Origin: an uncultured Gemmatimonadales bacterium
Lineage (GTDB): Bacteria; Gemmatimonadota; Gemmatimonadetes; Gemmatimonadales; GWC2-71-9
Assembly: GCA_963821525.1 (NCBI GenBank)
Contig: CAWGED010000019.1
Span: forward strand, 288,001 to 352,000
Direction: 5' to 3'
Length of the DNA stretch: 64,000 nucleotides
In this document: positions 1,353 through 63,878 of the stretch, piece by piece
Numbering within the stretch: the first letter of the stretch is position 1
How the letters are laid out: the number at the start of each line of letters is the position of its first letter
The notes under the pieces: generated by a model
The model's database searches: none
What the model was told of the DNA's origin: nothing
What the model saw: only the letters and a program-made list of their open reading frames with translations
Program-made: the position numbers and the translations under genes

Positions 1353-2243
1353 ATGACGAATCCGCTTCCCGCCAAGGTGGTCCTGGGCCTGGTGCAGATG
1401 GCCATGTCGGACGACAAGCCCGACAACATGCGCCGCGCGGTCGCCGGCGTCAGGGAGGCCGCAGCCAAGGGCGCCAAGGTCATCTGTCTGCCCGAGCTGT
1501 TCCTGAGCCGGTACTTCTGCCAGGTCGAGGACCACCGCTTCTTCCAGCTCGCCGAGCCGATTCCGGGACCGAGTACCACCTCGCTCGGCGCCCTGGCCAA
1601 GGAGCTTGGTGTCGTCATCATCGCATCGCTGTTCGAGAAGCGCGCCGAAGGTCTGTATCACAACACCACCGCGATTCTCGATGCCGACGGGAAATACCTC
1701 GGCAAATACCGGAAGATGCACATTCCGGACGACCCCAACTATTACGAGAAGTTCTATTTCACCCCGGGCGATCTCGGTTTCCGCTCCTGGGACACGCAGC
1801 ACGCCAAGGCCGGCGTACTCATTTGCTGGGACCAATGGTACCCCGAGGCCGCAAGGCTCACTGCGCTGACCGGGGCGCAGATCCTCTTCTATCCCACTGC
1901 GATCGGTTGGCTCATTCCCGAAAAGGCGGAGTACGGCGCGGCCCAGCAGGCCTCGTGGGAGACGATCCAGCGAAGCCACGCGATCGCGAACGGCGTCTAC
2001 GTGGTGGCCGTCAACCGGGTCGGCGTTGAGCCGGGGCCCAACCAGGGGATCGAGTTCTGGGGCGGCAGCTTCGTCGCGGCTCCCAACGGCGAGATCATCG
2101 CGAAGGCGGGCACCGGCGAGGAGACGATCGTGGTCGAAGTGGACACTGGTCGAGTCGACGTCGCGCGCACGCACTGGCCGTTTCTGCGGGACCGGAGAGT
2201 CGATGCGTATGGGGGGATGACGAGTCGGTATTTGGATGACTGA
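1353..2243 (+). CDS. aguB: N-carbamoylputrescine amidase (carbon-nitrogen hydrolase family)
   Basis: Nitrilase triad motifs CLPELF, YRKMHIPDDP-YYEKFYF, ICWDQWYPEAAR; ends WPFLRDRR; next to agmatine deiminase. Confidence 0.9.
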   Translation: MTNPLPAKVVLGLVQMAMSDDKPDNMRRAVAGVREAAAKGAKVICLPELFLSRYFCQVEDHRFFQLAEPIPGPSTTSLGALAKELGVVIIASLFEKRAEGLYHNTTAILDADGKYLGKYRKMHIPDDPNYYEKFYFTPGDLGFRSWDTQHAKAGVLICWDQWYPEAARLTALTGAQILFYPTAIGWLIPEKAEYGAAQQASWETIQRSHAIANGVYVVAVNRVGVEPGPNQGIEFWGGSFVAAPNGEIIAKAGTGEETIVVEVDTGRVDVARTHWPFLRDRRVDAYGGMTSRYLDD

Positions 2244-2244
2244 C

Positions 2245-2641
2245 CTATTGCCGATTGCCGATTGCTGATTGCCGATTGCGGCTCACTCGCTCCACACTCT
2301 TTTCCGCAGTTCGACGAGCTGCGATTACGATCGAGAGCAGTTCATTGCCCTCAACTAGAAGCGCCTCAATCCGCTCGCGGGATGCCGATCCGAGATCTCT
2401 GAGCAACTCCAACCAGAAAAGGGTTTCGTCGCATTCCTCAACGACGATACTGAGCTTCGCGACGAACTCGCGCCGGGACCGGGCTCGGCAAACAGCTCGA
2501 TAGTTTGCCCCGACAGACGTTGCCGACCGCGTGAGTTGATCGCAGATGATCTGCGCATTCTCTCGATCGAGGCAGACTGCGACAGACCAACACAACTTGA
2601 AGGGCGAACGCCTTTGTCCGCCGCTTCATTTGAGAGGTCAT
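2245..2641 (-). CDS. Four-helix-bundle protein (23S rRNA-IVP / Avd-like family); one frameshift near 2557
   Basis: MKRRTKAFALQV...QLTRSATSVGANYRAVCRARSRREFVAKLSIVVEECDETLFWLELL joined across two frames. Start could be 2674. Confidence 0.85.
2246..2280 (+). repeat. Heptamer array, left arm of element A (5 units)
   Basis: TATTGCC GATTGCC GATTGCT GATTGCC GATTGCG. Confidence 0.9.
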
Positions 2642-2747
2642 CCCGCTTGTGTCAGGCCTGTGATCGAGCTCCATGGCGGGCAAGTTGTGGCATCAGGGTG
2701 GGTGAAACGGCACCCAAATGTTTCATCCACAGCCAAAGGAAACGCCG

Positions 2748-2782
2748 TACAATCAGCAATCGACAATCGGCAATCGTCAATT
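2748..2782 (-). repeat. Heptamer array, right arm of element A (5 units, inverted)
   Basis: TACAATC AGCAATC GACAATC GGCAATC GTCAATT; reverse complement matches the left arm at 28/35. Confidence 0.9.
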
Positions 2783-2785
2783 TTC

Positions 2786-3873
2786 ATGTCTAACCCGACT
2801 CCGGCTACGCTCGGCTACCAGATGCCGCCAGAATGGTGGCAGCACCGGGGCACCTGGCTGAGCTGGCCTCACAGAGAATCATCGTGGCCCGGGAAGTTCC
2901 AGCCCGTGCCTCATGTCTTCGCCGAGATGGTGCGACTTCTCTCTCCGCACGAGGAAGTGCACATCAACGTCACCGGCCAGGAGATGGAAGACGCGGTACG
3001 GGCAATTCTGGTGGAACATGGCATCGCACCGTCGGCAATTGGCCGAGCCGCGAGCGCCGAGCCGTCGAGCGTTGTTGTTTCCACCACAACCCCACCAACG
3101 ACGCCTGGTGCCGCGACCACGGCCCCTGCTTCATCCAGCGCAACGTGAATGGCCGGCGCGAGGAGGCCATTGTGGACTGGGGGTACAACGCGTGGGGCGG
3201 GAAATATCCGCCGTTCGAAGATGACGACGTGATCCCCACGAAAATCGCCGAGGAGTTTGGGATTCCGGTCTACCACCCGGGCATCGTGATGGAGGGAGGC
3301 AGCCTCGATGTGAACGGAGCGGGGACCCTGCTGACCACCGAATCCTGCCTGCTCAACCCCAACCGCAATCCCTCGCTCACCCGGGAGGAGATCGAGCGTT
3401 ACCTGATGGACTACCTGGGCGTTCGCCACATCCTCTGGCTGGGCGAGGGGATCGTGGGCGACGACACCGATGGCCACGTGGACGACCTGTCTCGGTTCAC
3501 CGATCCCTCCACCATCGTCACCGCGGTGGAAATGGATTCGAGCGACGAGAACTACCGGCCGCTGAAGGAGAACCTCGATCGTCTCCGCGGCATGCGGGAC
3601 CAGGACGGCAATCCCTTCCGAATCGTCACCCTGCCGATGCCGCCGGCGGCGTACTACGAAGGACAACGGCTCCCGGCGAGCTACGCCAACTTCTACATCG
3701 CGAACGGCGTCGTTCTCCTGCCGTCTTACGACCCGACGACCGACGAGATCGCCCGCCAAACCCTGCAGCGCTGCTTCCCGACCCGCCGGGTCACCCTGCT
3801 CGATTCCCGGGACCTGATCTGGGGACTGGGGTCATTTCATTGTGTGACGCAGCAGTGGCCGGGGGTGGGATAG
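2786..3873 (+). CDS. aguA: Agmatine deiminase; frameshift near 3070
   Basis: MPPEW..TWLSWPH, then TNDAWCRDHGP, MEGGSLDVNGAGTLLTTESCLLNPNRN, DTDGHVDD, GSFHCVTQQ. Confidence 0.9.
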
Positions 3874-3886
3874 GCGAGATCTTGGT

Positions 3887-3921
3887 GATTGAAGATTGAG
3901 GATTTCAGATTGAAGATTTTC
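3887..3921 (+). repeat. Heptamer array, left arm of element B (5 units)
   Basis: GATTGAA GATTGAG GATTTCA GATTGAA GATTTTC. Confidence 0.9.
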
Positions 3922-4279
3922 GGCTCGCGACCTTCCGCTCGAGCGTCAGCTTTGTCGCGGCTACAATCGCGACAAGCTCGCTGGCCTCTTTCAAAAGCGG
4001 ACTGATAGCCTCGATCTTTGCGACGCCCGACTCCGCCGCCAGTTCGAACCAGAACACCGACTCGTCCGCCTCCTCGAGAACAATCCCAATTTTTGCAGCA
4101 AACTCGCGGCGTGACCTCGCTCGACAGGCGGCACGGTAATTGGCCCCTATCGAGGAAGAGCTCCGTATCAATTGTCCCGCAATGACCCTGCCCTCAACCG
4201 TAGCCGGCAAGGTTCGGCAGAACCGAATCGCACCTGCGGCGAAAGCTCTGGTTCGCCGCTTCATTTCTTCCGGGGTCAC
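3905..4279 (-). CDS. Four-helix-bundle protein (23S rRNA-IVP / Avd-like family), intact
   Basis: MTPEEMKRRTRAFA...QLIRSSSSIGANYRAACRARSRREFAAKIGIVLEEADESVFWFEL; stop codon lies inside the left heptamer arm. Confidence 0.9.
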   Translation of the reverse strand: MTPEEMKRRTRAFAAGAIRFCRTLPATVEGRVIAGQLIRSSSSIGANYRAACRARSRREFAAKIGIVLEEADESVFWFELAAESGVAKIEAISPLLKEASELVAIVAATKLTLERKVASRKSSI

Positions 4280-4386
4280 ACCGAACAATTACCCTGCCCT
4301 GGGCCCGGTAGCCCCGCCATAGAAACGCAAGCCGGGTCCTCCGCACGCGCGAGGAACCCGGCCCTTACTGTCCAATACTTCTGATT

Positions 4387-4421
4387 TCAAATCTTCAATC
4401 TGAAATCTTCAATCTGAAATC
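4387..4421 (-). repeat. Heptamer array, right arm of element B (5 units, inverted)
   Basis: TCAAATC TTCAATC TGAAATC TTCAATC TGAAATC; reverse complement matches the left arm at 30/35. Confidence 0.9.
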
Positions 4422-4427
4422 GCCTCC

Positions 4428-6577
4428 CTACTTCAGAAACAACATCTCCCGATAGGTTGGCATTGGCCACAAACTCGACTCCACGTGCAGCTCGATCGTG
4501 TCGGCCAGGGTGCGGAGGTCGGCCATGGCGGGCTTGACCTTCTCCTTGATCCACTGCGCGTGCTTGATCGGGTCGCCATCCTCGTGAGCGACCGCCTTCT
4601 CCAGGCTGCCCAGTGCTTCCCGGAACCGGGAGACCAGGTTGACGAACTCGCCCAGCGCCTGGTGGGTATCCAGGCACTTGACCCCGGCCGCCTCGGTCAC
4701 CGACACCGCCTGCGCCACCTTCGCCTGATGCTGCAGCGCCGCGGGCAGGATCATCGTGCGCGCCATGGTGATCATGGTCTGCGCCTCGATGTCGATCTGC
4801 TTGACGTACTTCTCGTACGCGATGTGGGTCCGCGAATCGAGCTCGGCCTTGTTCAGGACGCCGTACTTCTTGAACAGGTCCGCGATCTTCTTCTGGCGCA
4901 GGACCGCGAACGCCTCGACCGAGTCCCGGAAGTGCGGCAGGCCGCGCTCCTCGGCCTCATCGTGCCACTCGGCGGAGTAGTTGTCGCCCTCCGAAGATCA
5001 CCCGCTTGTGCTGCCGGATCACCTTCTTGAGCACCGAGAGCACCGCGGCCTGCAGCCGGGCGGGCGTCGGGGTCTTCCCCGCAGCCTTCTCCAGCTCCGT
5101 CGCCATGTAGTCGAGCGATTCGGCGGCGATCGTGTTCAGCACCGTGTTGGGCCAGGCGATGGTCTGGCTCGAGCCCACGGCGCGGAACTCGAACTTGTTC
5201 CCGGTGAAGGCGAAGGGAGAGGTCCGGTTCCGGTCTCCCGAGTGCCGGGGGAGCTGGGGCAGCGTCCGGGCGCCCAGATTCAGCGTCCCGCCCCGGATGG
5301 TGCGCTTGGGCAGGCCCTTCTCGACCTGGTCGCAGGATGTCCTCGAGCATGTCGCCCAGGAACATCGAGATGATCGCCGGAGGCGCCTCGTTGGCGCCCA
5401 GACGGTGATCGTTCGGCGCCGAGGCGATCGAGGCCCGCAGCAGATCGGCATGGAGATCCACGCGCCCGGATCACGGCGCAGAGGAACACCAGGAACTGCA
5501 TGTTGGTGTGGGTCTCATCCTGCGGGTCGAGGAGGTTCACCCCGGTATCGGTCGCCATCGACCAGTTGTTGTGCTTGCCCGATCCATTGACGCCGGCGAA
5601 CGGCTTCTCGTGCAGCAGAGCCGCGAGGCCGTGCCGCTCCGCCACCCGCTTCAGCGTCTCCATCATGAGCATCTGATGGTCGCTCGCGATCTGGCTCATT
5701 TCGAACAGCGGAGCAATCTCGTACTGCGCGCGGGGCCACCTCGTTGTGCCGGGTCTTGACCGGCACTCCCAGGCGATAGAGCTCCCGCTCGCAGTCGGCC
5801 ATGCAGGCCAGAACGCGCTGGGGGATCACCCCGAAGTACTGGTCCTCGAGCTGCTGACCCTTGGGAGGCCGGGCGCCGAAGAGGGTCCGCTCGCAGGTGA
5901 GCAGATCAGGCCGCTGGAAGAAGTACTCCCGGTCGATCAGGAAGTACTCCTGCTCCGGGCCCACCGTGGTGTAGACCTTGGTGACCCCCTCGTCGTTGCC
6001 GAAGATCTTCAGGATCCGGAGCGCCTGCTTGGAGAGCGCCTCCATCGAGCGGAGCAGCGGGATCTTGGTGTCCAGCGCCTCGCCGGTCCAGGAAACGAAC
6101 GCGGTGGGGATCACCAGGGTCGTGGCGCCGTTCGCCCCGCATGAGAAACGCCGGGCTGGTAACATCCCACGCCGTGTAGCCGCGGGCCTCGAAGGTGGCC
6201 CGAAGGCCGCCCGACGGAAAACTCGAGGCGTCCGGCTCGCCCTGTACCAGCTCCGATCCCGAGAAGTTGTAGATCACCCCGCCCTGCCCGTCGGGCTGAA
6301 CCAGCGAATCGTGCTTCTCCGCGGTCAGCCCGGTCAGCGGCTGGAACCAGTGAGTAAAGTGCGTGGCGCCATTCTCGATGGCCCAGTCCTTCATGGCCGA
6401 AGCGACGACATCGGCCACCTTGGGATCGAGCGGCTCGCCCCGATCGATGGTCCGCAGCAGACTCCGGAAGACATCCTTGGGGAGGCGCTGGCGCATGACG
6501 TCACGGGAGAAGACGTCGGCGCTGAAGATGGTGTCAATGCGGACGGGCGTACCGTTGGAAACGGCAGGAATCGTCAC
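4428..6577 (-). CDS. glnN: Glutamine synthetase type III; about 5 frameshifts
   Basis: GSIII motifs across six consecutive frame segments: [93 protein letters not shown]. Confidence 0.9.
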
Positions 6578-61789: not shown

Positions 61790-62706
61790 ATGTCGATACG
61801 TCCGGTTCAGCGAGTCGCCAAATCCAGGCCCACGATGGAAGGAGCGGGAGTGAAGCTCCGGCGTGCCTTCGGATTCGGCGATACCACCGAATTCGACCCG
61901 TTTCTGTTGTTCGACGATTTCCGCAACGAGCGGCCCGAGGACTATCTCGCGGGCTTTCCCTGGCATCCGCATCGCGGCATCGAGACCATCACCTACGTGC
62001 TCAAGGGGACGGTCGCCCATGGCGACAGCCTGGGGAACAAGGGGACTCTCGGCGCGGGTGACGTGCAGTGGATGACGGCGGGGAGCGGGATCCTGCACCA
62101 GGAGATGCCGCGAGGCGACGAGGCGGGACGGATGCACGGGTTCCAGCTCTGGGCCAACCTGCCCTCGTCGCTCAAGATGACACCCCCTCGCTATCAGGAC
62201 GTCCAGGGCAAGGACGTGCCCGAGGTCATCGACGATGACGGCACCATCGTGCGAGTGGTCGTGGGAGATTTTTGGGGGAAGGCGGGACCGGTGGAAGGGA
62301 TCGCCGCGGACCCGCGCTACCTCGATGTGTATGTTCCGCCCAACCTCCGTAAGACGCTGCCCGTGCGTCTGGGCCAGCATGCCTTCGCCTACGTCTTCGA
62401 AGGAGCGGCACGTTCCAAGACGCTTCGAAGCCGCAGCCGGTGCCGACCGACCGCGTCGCGGATCCCCTTCACCCCGCTACCCCCGCGGCCGCGCAGGACG
62501 CGGACAACCGCTCGCTGGTTCTCTTCGGCAGCGGCGATGAGGTGACAGTCCAGGCCGGCGAGACGGGCATCCGGTTCCTGCTGGTCTCGGGCAAACCGCT
62601 CGAGGAGCCGGTGGCATGGTACGGCCCCATCGTGATGAACACGGAGAAGGAGCTGGAGCAGGCAGTGAAGGAATTGCGCGAAGGAACTTTCATCAAACCT
62701 AGATAA
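61790..62706 (+). CDS. Pirin-family protein; frameshift near 62410
   Basis: DPFLLFD, GFPWHPHRGIET, WMTAGSGILHQE, YGPIVMN. Confidence 0.9.
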
Positions 62707-62798
62707 TTGCAGATTGCAGATTGCAGATTGAAGATTGAAAATGCAGATGATCTCACCGGTCAACTCAATCTTCAATCTGAAATCTTCAATCTGAAATG
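62705..62798. repeat. Empty inverted heptamer element C (5+5 units, 24-nt spacer)
   Basis: AATTGCA GATTGCA GATTGCA GATTGAA GATTGAA ... CTCAATC TTCAATC TGAAATC TTCAATC TGAAATG. Confidence 0.9.
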
Positions 62799-62812: not shown

Positions 62813-63169
62813 ATGGCATACGTCGACGGTTTCGTCATTGCGTTGCCCCGAAGAAAGCTCCCTGTATACCGGCGAATCTCCCGACAGGCCGGTAAGGTGT
62901 GGAAGCAGCACGGCGCGCTGGAGTACCGGGAGTGCGCCGGCGATGACCTGCAGATGAAGATGGGAATGCCGTTCCCGAGGCTGGCGCGAGTCAAGCCAGG
63001 GGAGACGGTGGTGTTTTCCTGGATTCTCTACCGGAACCGGCGTCATCGGGATCGGGTCAACGCCAAGGTCATGAAGGACCCCCGCATGGAGCGCATGATG
63101 AAGCTCCCGATGCCATTCGATATGAAACGGATGGCGTACGGCGGATTCAAGGTTATTGTGGATATGTGA
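62813..63169 (+). CDS. DUF1428-family protein
   Basis: YVDGFV, HGALEYRECAGDD, MPFDMKRMAYGGF. Confidence 0.9.
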   Translation: MAYVDGFVIALPRRKLPVYRRISRQAGKVWKQHGALEYRECAGDDLQMKMGMPFPRLARVKPGETVVFSWILYRNRRHRDRVNAKVMKDPRMERMMKLPMPFDMKRMAYGGFKVIVDM

Positions 63170-63277
63170 CGCCCAGGATGGAGCTGGGACGAGGGAGGAA
63201 GCCTCGCCGCAGTCTCGGGCGGGGCTTTCTTGTCGATAGCAGCACGGATGTGTCGCGTCCAGACGGAAGGAGGAAGG

Positions 63278-63758: not shown

Positions 63759-63878
63759 GATTGAAGATTGAAGATTTCAGATTGAAGATTGAAAAGCCAG
63801 CAATACTCAATCGTCAGTCTGATATCTTCAATCTTCGGCCTTGACCAATCTTCAATCTGAAATCTTCAATCTTCAATC
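63759..63878. repeat. Empty inverted heptamer element D (5+5 units plus a degenerate internal array)
   Basis: GATTGAA GATTGAA GATTTCA GATTGAA GATTGAA ... ACCAATC TTCAATC TGAAATC TTCAATC TTCAATC (33/35 complementary). Confidence 0.9.

Follow-up and report, generated by a model that had tools for sequence, protein, structure and literature searches.

The 64,000-nucleotide stretch of DNA analysed here, referred to as the window (G000:C19:288001-352000), comes from an uncultured Gemmatimonadales bacterium represented by an assembly of 4.33 Mb in 19 contigs (64% G+C, 81% complete), and contains two small genes of the family of 23S ribosomal RNA (rRNA) intervening-sequence proteins, each enclosed by a pair of inverted arrays of 7-nt units. 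Within positions 2245-4421, the minus-strand open reading frames (ORFs) 2245-2595 (gene 1) and 3905-4288 (gene 2) are each flanked by a run of GATTNNN units and an inverted run, and two further pairs of such arms lie elsewhere in the window with a short loop and no gene (Table 1). An initial annotation, made from the sequence alone, had counted five units in all eight arms and placed the arms beside start or stop codons, and both observations stand. A mismatch-tolerant count gives five units in 8/8 arms, and the pattern GATTNNNGATTNNNGATT (three consecutive cores, at most one mismatch) has 24 matches in the window, 24/24 of them within the eight arms, compared with a mean of 0.10 and a maximum of 2 in the shuffled window. 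By direct reading of the sequence, the outer arm ends of all window elements lie 2-14 nt from the stop or start codon of a neighbour, and the surroundings consist of aguB-like, aguA-like, and other protein-coding genes.

Table 1. Coordinates of the elements within the window
Feature	Position	Strand	Description
Element 1, 5' arm	2246..2277	none	Five units, TATTGCC GATTGCC GATTGCT GATTGCC GATT; 2 nt past the aguB-like stop codon
Four-helix-bundle gene 1	2248..2683	-	TIGR02436/PF05635; two frames in the assembly, 2248-2595 and 2441-2683
Element 1, 3' arm	2751..2782	none	Five inverted units; 3 nt 5' of the aguA-like ATG; closes the predicted stem with the 5' arm
Element 2, 5' arm	3887..3918	none	GATTGAA GATTGAG GATTTCA GATTGAA GATT; contains the gene 2 stop codon
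Four-helix-bundle gene 2	3905..4288	-	Intact 127-aa ORF, TIGR02436/PF05635; model closest to 2rld, 2gsc, and Avd 4dwl
Element 2, 3' arm	4390..4421	none	Five inverted units; 6 nt from the stop codon of minus-strand ORF 4428-4775
Gene-less hairpin	62705..62798	none	Five-unit arms 62705-62736 and 62767-62798, loop of 30 nt
Gene-less hairpin	63759..63878	none	Five-unit arms 63759-63790 and 63847-63878, loop of 56 nt

Both genes score above the cut-offs of TIGR02436 (73.3 bits for gene 2 and 69.9 bits for gene 1, cut-off 24) and PF05635 (49.3 and 51.9 bits, respectively, cut-off 33.8), which bears out their description as two paralogues of the 23S rRNA intervening-sequence protein family. The product of gene 2 is confidently modelled as a four-helix bundle (predicted local distance difference test score, pLDDT, of 94.9), with helices at 5-23, 30-54, 59-85, and 91-124. 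Foldseek places this model nearest to 2rld (BT_0352; template-modelling (TM) scores of 0.77/0.90), 2gsc (Xcc0516; 0.78/0.83), and 4dwl (Avd; 0.71/0.81), with the retroelement particle 8ub7 also among the nearest structures; a sequence search for solved relatives returns 2rld only, and gene 2 and Avd share 11-15% sequence identity. The initial annotation had pointed to a likeness between the family and the homopentamer bAvd, and the relatives 2rld and 2gsc each have five chains (A-E). In published accounts, Xcc0516 is described as a homopentameric toroid (PMC4990558) and Avd as a pentameric barrel with positive charge, in contact with an RNA element of the retroelement particle (PMC6182149; bioRxiv 10.1101/2023.10.23.563531). 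By analogy, the window proteins are likely to be pentameric. The family motif has been given as GxxRxxxSxxxNxxE (PMC3936711), of which gene 2 has G37, R41, S45, and N49 with A instead of the final E; in the same region, the window subfamily reads ANYRA and the other subfamily in this genome reads ANIAEG. That publication also notes four-helix-bundle genes in cas loci, with no mention of repeats there (PMC3936711). Proteins of the window subfamily are basic, with a median isoelectric point (pI) of 10.0 and a net charge of +5, and PADLOC and PHROGs gave no match for the three proteins tried. The four-helix-bundle genes are under purifying selection, with a ratio of nonsynonymous to synonymous substitution rates (dN/dS) of about 0.1 (0.09-0.12 in 4/7 pairs with estimable dS, including gene 2 and its orthologue in the related genome G003).

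The association between arms and four-helix-bundle genes, which the initial annotation suspected from the window copies, extends through the genome, the order, and distant phyla. TIGR02436 matches 13 places in the genome, and at least 11/13 of these genes are bracketed by inverted tandem arrays of 7-8-nt units, the unit differing each time (AGTCTGG, GCCGTCA, GACGGTTC, GATTGAGG, GTGAGCG, GTGAGAA, GTCAGGN, CGGCGGAC, and TAGCTNT, in addition to two GATT types). The arms are degenerate at two of the TIGR02436 genes, and a local profile detects one further weak gene copy inside GGATTGAG arms. Among 21 genomes of the same order, 16 contain the family, with bracketing inverted arrays at 18/30 loci under a strict test with Tandem Repeats Finder (TRF), and in the window's own subfamily bracketing arms are found at 23/30 loci. 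A scan of one genome per species yielded 80 loci from about 15 phyla, including Acidobacteriota, Chloroflexota, Bacteroidota, Planctomycetota, Verrucomicrobiota, Nitrospirota, and Actinomycetota; 45/80 pass the bracketing test and many others have one arm, compared with 0/144 shifted control intervals. These 80 loci were found with a six-sequence alignment of one subfamily and therefore do not sample the whole family. In the literature searched, no paper was found that connects four-helix-bundle or S23p genes with inverted tandem-repeat arms as a rule, and the single related case found in print is the rRNA intervening sequence (IVS) of Coxiella. Long-loop inverted pairs were also considered as carriers of other cargo (histidyl-tRNA synthetase, AIR-synthase domain, CBS, and DinB) and rejected, these being ordinary genes between the arms of two neighbouring elements. 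In the distant cassettes (L031-L110), gene and neighbours mostly share a strand (17 vs. 4 classified left flanks and 18 vs. 3 right flanks). Two distant loci with both neighbours antisense have interiors of 494 and 497 nt, compared with a median of 431 nt, and the two antisense window cassettes have leaders of 100-130 nt.

The same kind of arm is abundant in this genome without any gene. The TRF output has 1181 rows for period 7, 200 for period 6, and 411 for period 8; after merging, arrays of period 7 or 8 number 1134 and inverted pairs 242, with 199 gene-less short-loop hairpins in 59 unit families. Every arm type around four-helix genes is also found gene-less in the genome, and the most abundant unit families, ACCGAGT and ACTCCCT, are without a cognate four-helix gene in the assembly. 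Tabulation of the 166 GATT-type arms gives a unit number that is sharply peaked and not broad (five units in 100 arms, four in 21, three in 25, and six in 13). These arms form 61 plus/minus pairs, with a loop of 13-126 nt in 58, of 471 and 473 nt at the two window genes, and a gap of 1421 nt in the remaining pair, which encloses the histidyl-tRNA synthetase gene and whose arms belong to two neighbouring elements. Arms of short-loop pairs have a median length of 31 nt (quartiles 27-35), and those around 45 distant four-helix genes have the same median (quartiles 27-33). Paired arms with 8-nt units are longer than those with 7-nt units (36 vs. 31 nt, p 0.0015; n = 36 vs. 362) and have a similar number of copies (4.5 vs. 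4.4, p 0.83), with about 4.4 TRF copies per arm corresponding to five cores for both unit lengths; this shared copy number weakly supports a fixed unit number. Over all arrays, paired or unpaired, the trend is reversed (3.9 copies and 31 nt for 8-nt units vs. 4.3 copies and 30 nt for 7-nt units), probably due to the score floor. Of the 164 loops of at least 20 nt in the genome, twelve form one similarity cluster, which may be a copied subfamily resembling the miniature transposable elements with inverted repeats known as MITEs, and the other loops are mostly unique.

The hairpins are also regular in orientation and position. The common polarity that the initial annotation saw in the window arms is real, but it is not peculiar to these four copies, since 137/139 short-loop pairs follow the orientation of their own unit family (families of at least three pairs). 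G exceeds C in the 5' arm of 164 pairs vs. 30 and of 46 families vs. 7, and in this genome AG occurs in 44/59 and CT in 11/59 of the 5'-arm units. The 45 distant cassettes have no excess of G in the 5' arm (21 vs. 18); AG occurs in 41 of their units, and AG without CT in 22 vs. 1 with the opposite pattern. The distance from stop codon to arm has a median of 1 nt and falls within -10 to +20 nt in 117/153 cases. Hairpins with both flanks classified (n = 86) lie between tandem genes in 54 cases, convergent genes in 24, and divergent genes in 8, compared with a background of 263 convergent and 269 divergent gene pairs that is rough only, being taken from a crude gene caller based on G+C content at third codon positions (GC3) that covered 69% of the genome.

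In predicted folds of the four window elements, the arms form one long stem in the minimum-energy structure that is at least outlined in the centroid, and in both cassettes the arms are paired in the minimum-energy as well as the centroid folds. The predicted stems have about 27-37 pairs with z-scores of -4.6 to -10.4, and no shuffled sequence folds as well. The RNA of the gene-less hairpin at 62705-62798 has a predicted energy of -38 to -40 kcal/mol (z -5.3 and -6.1), and that at 63759-63878 has -59 to -64 kcal/mol (z -10.4 and -9.9). In 54/58 gene-less GATT pairs, the two arms are of one subclass. Duplex energies of own and foreign arms, computed for windows of 75-100 nt, mainly reflect the GC-rich flanks and bring nothing beyond the direct reading. 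The arms are complementary and change together, and a stem therefore fits them better than a set of single-stranded binding sites.

Comparison of orthologous sites shows how gene, arms, and gene-less hairpins are related. At the aguB/aguA junction, a gene lies in GATTGCC arms in the window genome (G000), in GATTGCC/GATTGCT arms in G004, and a gene is also present in G011, whereas the congeners G002 and G003 have, respectively, a gene-less hairpin of 99 nt whose arms each have five AATTNNN units and a gene-less GATTGAA hairpin of about 198 nt; gene-carrying and empty forms, which the initial annotation had proposed to seek, thus occupy one orthologous site. In four further genera, this site has (A/G)ATTGCT, GGGAATG, GGATGGGG or GGGAATAT arms. 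Similarly, the site after the gene ending at 62702 has GATT hairpins in G000, G002, and G003, arms of the GAGAAAGT/GTGAGAA type in G004, and none in G001; among congeners, one junction can hold either of two different unit families. The corresponding region of G001 (L123, G001:C36:57750-57900) is without the 62705-62798 hairpin and most of the small gene 62813-63170; in G003, this small gene is absent and a hairpin is kept. The loop 63791-63846 is the reverse complement of the orthologous G003 and G004 loops, as if flipped by recombination between the arms.

A longer record is preserved upstream of obg, where 16 window-subfamily cassettes lie at one site in eight genera (g16, g17, g22, g23, g34, g47, g52, and g54). 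The units at this site (GATTGCG, GAATGCG, GAACGCG, GAGTGCG, and GCGTGCG) form a one-substitution network, the two arms are complements of each other at each locus, and the arm of L147 mixes two units. GATT is consequently not the constant of the family that it had seemed from the window, as orthologous cassettes carry any of these five units. The obg-site proteins are 50-91% identical, compared with 80-94% for Obg, and the closest protein pairs (91, 89, 75, and 75%) share their arm type; of the 91% and 89% pairs, one spans two genera. Both arms change unit together at two orthologous sites. Because the obg-site arms are complementary and close proteins share an arm type, each gene is passed on with its arms, and a change of unit extends to both of them. 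At L140, L142, L143, L147, and L152, a relic array of a different unit lies outside the arm on one side only and resembles an abandoned older arm. On a wider scale, the five genomes of the genus have 161, 41, 91, 223, and 113 GATT arrays with four or more cores, G007 has 59, and the 15 other relatives searched have 0-1; AATT arrays in the same five genomes number 40, 101, 51, 46, and 3. The highest AATT share is found in G001 and G002, whose cassette 2 has AATTGGT arms, a lead drawn from four related genomes only. The 59 arrays of G007, which belongs to the same family and another genus, are of the GATTGCG type, a unit also found in some obg-site cassettes of other genera.

The window cassettes resemble the 23S rRNA IVSs of Coxiella burnetii (helix-45) and Leptospira in the S23p-family ORF of about 110-125 aa in the loop, the stem (about 28 bp or longer, predicted for the window) formed by terminal inverted repeats, and the element size of about 430-540 nt. 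The Coxiella IVS is reported to be cut by RNase III and to have a 28-bp terminal stem, an S23p ORF, and three tandem heptamers upstream of this ORF in a strain-variable number (PMC4990558), so that tandem heptamers are shared as well. In contrast, rRNA IVSs are sited in the 23S rRNA gene (helix 9, 25 or 45), whereas the window elements lie between protein-coding genes, have arms that are wholly a tandem array of about five units, and are accompanied by about two hundred gene-less copies in this genome. The interpretation that we favour, and to which we would give about an even chance, is that the four loci are hairpin elements with about five inverted 7-nt units per arm, two of them with an S23p/Avd-type gene in the loop, and that they follow an intervening-sequence design at gene junctions with predicted pairing, RNase III excision, and a repeat-binding protein. 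In such a design, the arms would pair in the operon transcript and the stem would extrude the cassette, so that the insert would do little harm. Host RNase III might then cut the insert out, by analogy with rRNA intervening sequences, and the basic, likely pentameric protein may bind the repeats or act on the arms. The tandem build could arise and stay uniform through slippage within an arm and templated correction between arms. As a conjecture on the orientation rule, a C-rich 5' arm would stay unpaired during transcription of the loop and could load Rho.

Several observations weigh against the intervening-sequence design. The window elements are not in rRNA, and the sole 23S gene found in the assembly (2962 nt vs. 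2925 model positions) is without a large insert. Operon read-through cannot account for expression of the two window genes, as each is antisense to its neighbours. At variable positions, the partner arms of GATT gene-less pairs are no more complementary than shuffled partners of the same subclass. A plain stem needs no tandem units, and it leaves unexplained both why 7-nt and 8-nt arms alike keep about 4.4 units and why the 5' arm is the G-richer one (46 vs. 7 families).

Tandem units, their fixed number, and the strictness of orientation go beyond a plain stem, and the initial annotation's model with one unit per subunit is therefore kept, albeit as a rather unlikely one. In this model, each subunit of a pentamer would bind one of five identical heptamers in single-stranded RNA or DNA, and the gene-less hairpins would be further targets of the cognate protein. 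The idea is that of the trp RNA-binding attenuation protein (TRAP), an 11-mer that reads triplets, in which a ring of identical subunits reads a spaced array with one short repeat per subunit; the fold of TRAP differs from that of S23p proteins, for which repeat reading is only proposed here by analogy. Paired 7-nt and 8-nt arms share the unit number and not the length, five units predominate among the GATT arms, the solved relatives are pentameric (PMC4990558; PMC6182149), the proteins are basic, and the loops are unrelated among hairpins of one unit family, all of which such binding would accommodate. The two genomes with an AATTGGT-armed cassette 2 also have the higher AATT array share, within four related genomes. 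Against these points, there are 59 unit families and 13-14 genes in the 81%-complete genome, the abundant ACCGAGT and ACTCCCT families are among those with no cognate gene in the assembly, and orthologous cassettes differ in unit. Moreover, the arms are complementary and co-varying in the manner of a duplex, slippage dynamics could likewise fix the unit number, and the comparison over all arrays, paired or not, runs in the opposite direction. A broader form of the idea, to which we attach a similarly low probability, is that S23p pentamers and arrays of about five short repeats constitute one bacteria-wide system in which each ring reads or maintains a five-unit arm.

A mobile pair comparable to repetitive extragenic palindromic (REP) sequences and their REP-associated tyrosine transposases (RAYTs), with an autonomous gene-bearing form and non-autonomous gene-less hairpins moved by the four-helix protein or by a trans-acting transposase, appears distinctly improbable. 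Like REPs and their hairpin-forming doublets (REPINs), the elements are abundant intergenic inverted pairs, with a proposed single-copy gene and many gene-less copies, but the window-type arms are tandem arrays in dozens of unit families and the enclosed gene encodes no HUH enzyme. Mobility could explain why orthologous junctions differ in presence or absence of an element and hold two unit families in congeners, why GATT arrays bloom in certain lineages (41-223 in the genus and 59 in G007, vs. 0-1 in 15 others), why relic outer arrays persist at five obg-site loci, and why protein pairs of 91% and 89% identity, one across two genera, share an arm type. However, cassettes have remained fixed at one site through eight genera, and gene-less loops match cassette interiors about as often as shuffled loops do (224 vs. 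192 matches, best E 0.006), in a test for deletion derivatives that has little power because the loops are short. The orthologous gene-less loops of G002 and G003 score 16 each against the window cassette, compared with 16.3 and 17.3 for shuffles, and a loop resembles another loop in 21/164 cases. The initial annotation had reported no transposase or reverse transcriptase in the window. For the reverse transcriptase this extends to the 81%-complete genome, in which RVT_1 gave no match; for transposases, of which only the Y1_Tnp family was searched, four genes lie outside the window. All four (4/4) are flanked by a different family of GC-rich palindromes and not by heptamer arrays, and the four-helix protein is without a known catalytic fold. 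Since the Y1 flanks differ and the loops hold no gene remnant, the RAYT/REP analogy drawn in the initial annotation is left with neither a catalytic partner nor a sign of derivation. The diversity-generating retroelement protein bAvd offers a related comparison: it is similar in its modelled fold (4dwl, TM 0.71/0.81), in being basic, and in the pentameric RNA-contacting barrel of published Avd (PMC6182149; bioRxiv 10.1101/2023.10.23.563531), but besides the missing RVT_1 there are no template or variable repeats beside the window genes and sequence identity is low.

The Y1_Tnp genes (G000:C12:7145-7486, C1:35924-36265, C12:49440-49781, and C19:590173-590517) with their GC-rich palindromes are a separate candidate REP/RAYT system. 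The flanks of the copies at C12:7145 and C1:35924 are nearly identical over 400 nt on each side, and one Y1_Tnp gene has unrelated CCATCGA arrays about 150 nt away.

Intergenic heptameric repeats have been described in Xanthomonas (GGGAATC) and Nostoc (GGGGAYT) (Rehm et al. 2015, PMC4692102). They share with the present arrays the tandem 7-nt units, intergenic location near stop codons, a preference for about four units, and convergent inverted pairs. A GATT core is common to both: the complement of the Xanthomonas unit reads GATTCCC, and rotation of the Nostoc variant GGGGATT gives GATTGGG; the unit number of those repeats has been ascribed to G-quadruplex formation, whereas GATTGAA, GATTTCA, and GATTGCC have no G-run. 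The words 'helix' and 'intervening' are absent from that paper (PMC4692102). Such repeats suggest a further explanation, in which heptamer hairpins are primary host features (microsatellites serving as terminators or mRNA-end structures) and the four-helix gene is a passenger settling in their loops, as in 23S rRNA helices. Xanthomonas has gene-less inverted heptamer pairs (70-75 convergent per genome, four units preferred, most transcribed; PMC4692102), and in the present genome the hairpins begin at stop codons, convergent sites exceed divergent ones (24 vs. 8, against the crude background of 263 and 269), and every gene-flanking arm type also occurs gene-less. We give this explanation little credence, because the arm-gene link extends to genomes and phyla beyond those examined for a bloom, the arm types shared by close protein relatives indicate that gene and arms move as one, no T tract lies 3' of the arms, and only genes of this one family are enclosed, the remaining long-loop pairs being ordinary genes between two elements.

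To our knowledge, PF05635/TIGR02436 is a large family with solved structures and no known function, and we know of no established purpose of rRNA intervening sequences. Among the long microsatellites of many bacteria, heptamer repeats show the strongest over-representation, for which we know of no established explanation. The PF05635 genes, the heptamer repeats, and the rRNA intervening sequences come together here in one common architecture. If true, the system of S23p rings and five-unit arms would jointly explain the excess of 7-nt microsatellites, the ORF-bearing IVSs of 23S rRNA, and the function of PF05635. The mechanisms that can be entertained are narrowed by the fixed unit number of 7-nt and 8-nt arms, the G-rich arm on the 5' side, the one-step unit changes in both arms, and the purifying selection on the gene.

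Among minor observations, DNA and RNA runs contain joints in which about 470 nt between arms are skipped. These joints were considered as deletion alleles of the window site and rejected, as their sides are at most 33 nt with other letters between them and they derive from other gene-less copies. Contigs of four RNA runs, at 90% likeness, cover neither gene interior, which says nothing on expression, and a sigma-70 promoter scan of 2150-4500 was uninformative (1 site vs. 0.6 expected). At the gene 1 site, contigs from 4/4 soil DNA runs are without one base at 2556, where the frames change, and the frame break is therefore probably an assembly or strain difference and not decay. Similarly, the aguA-like gene (PF04371, window 2786-3873) is in two frames, split near 3040-3080 at a small tandem repeat, and one contig of run X1 has four single-base insertions between 3050 and 3077. 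The minus-strand gene 4428-6577, located 3' of element 2, is interrupted and read as four or more overlapping ORFs whose frames differ, and the breaks in these three neighbouring genes together suggest indel errors in the assembly.

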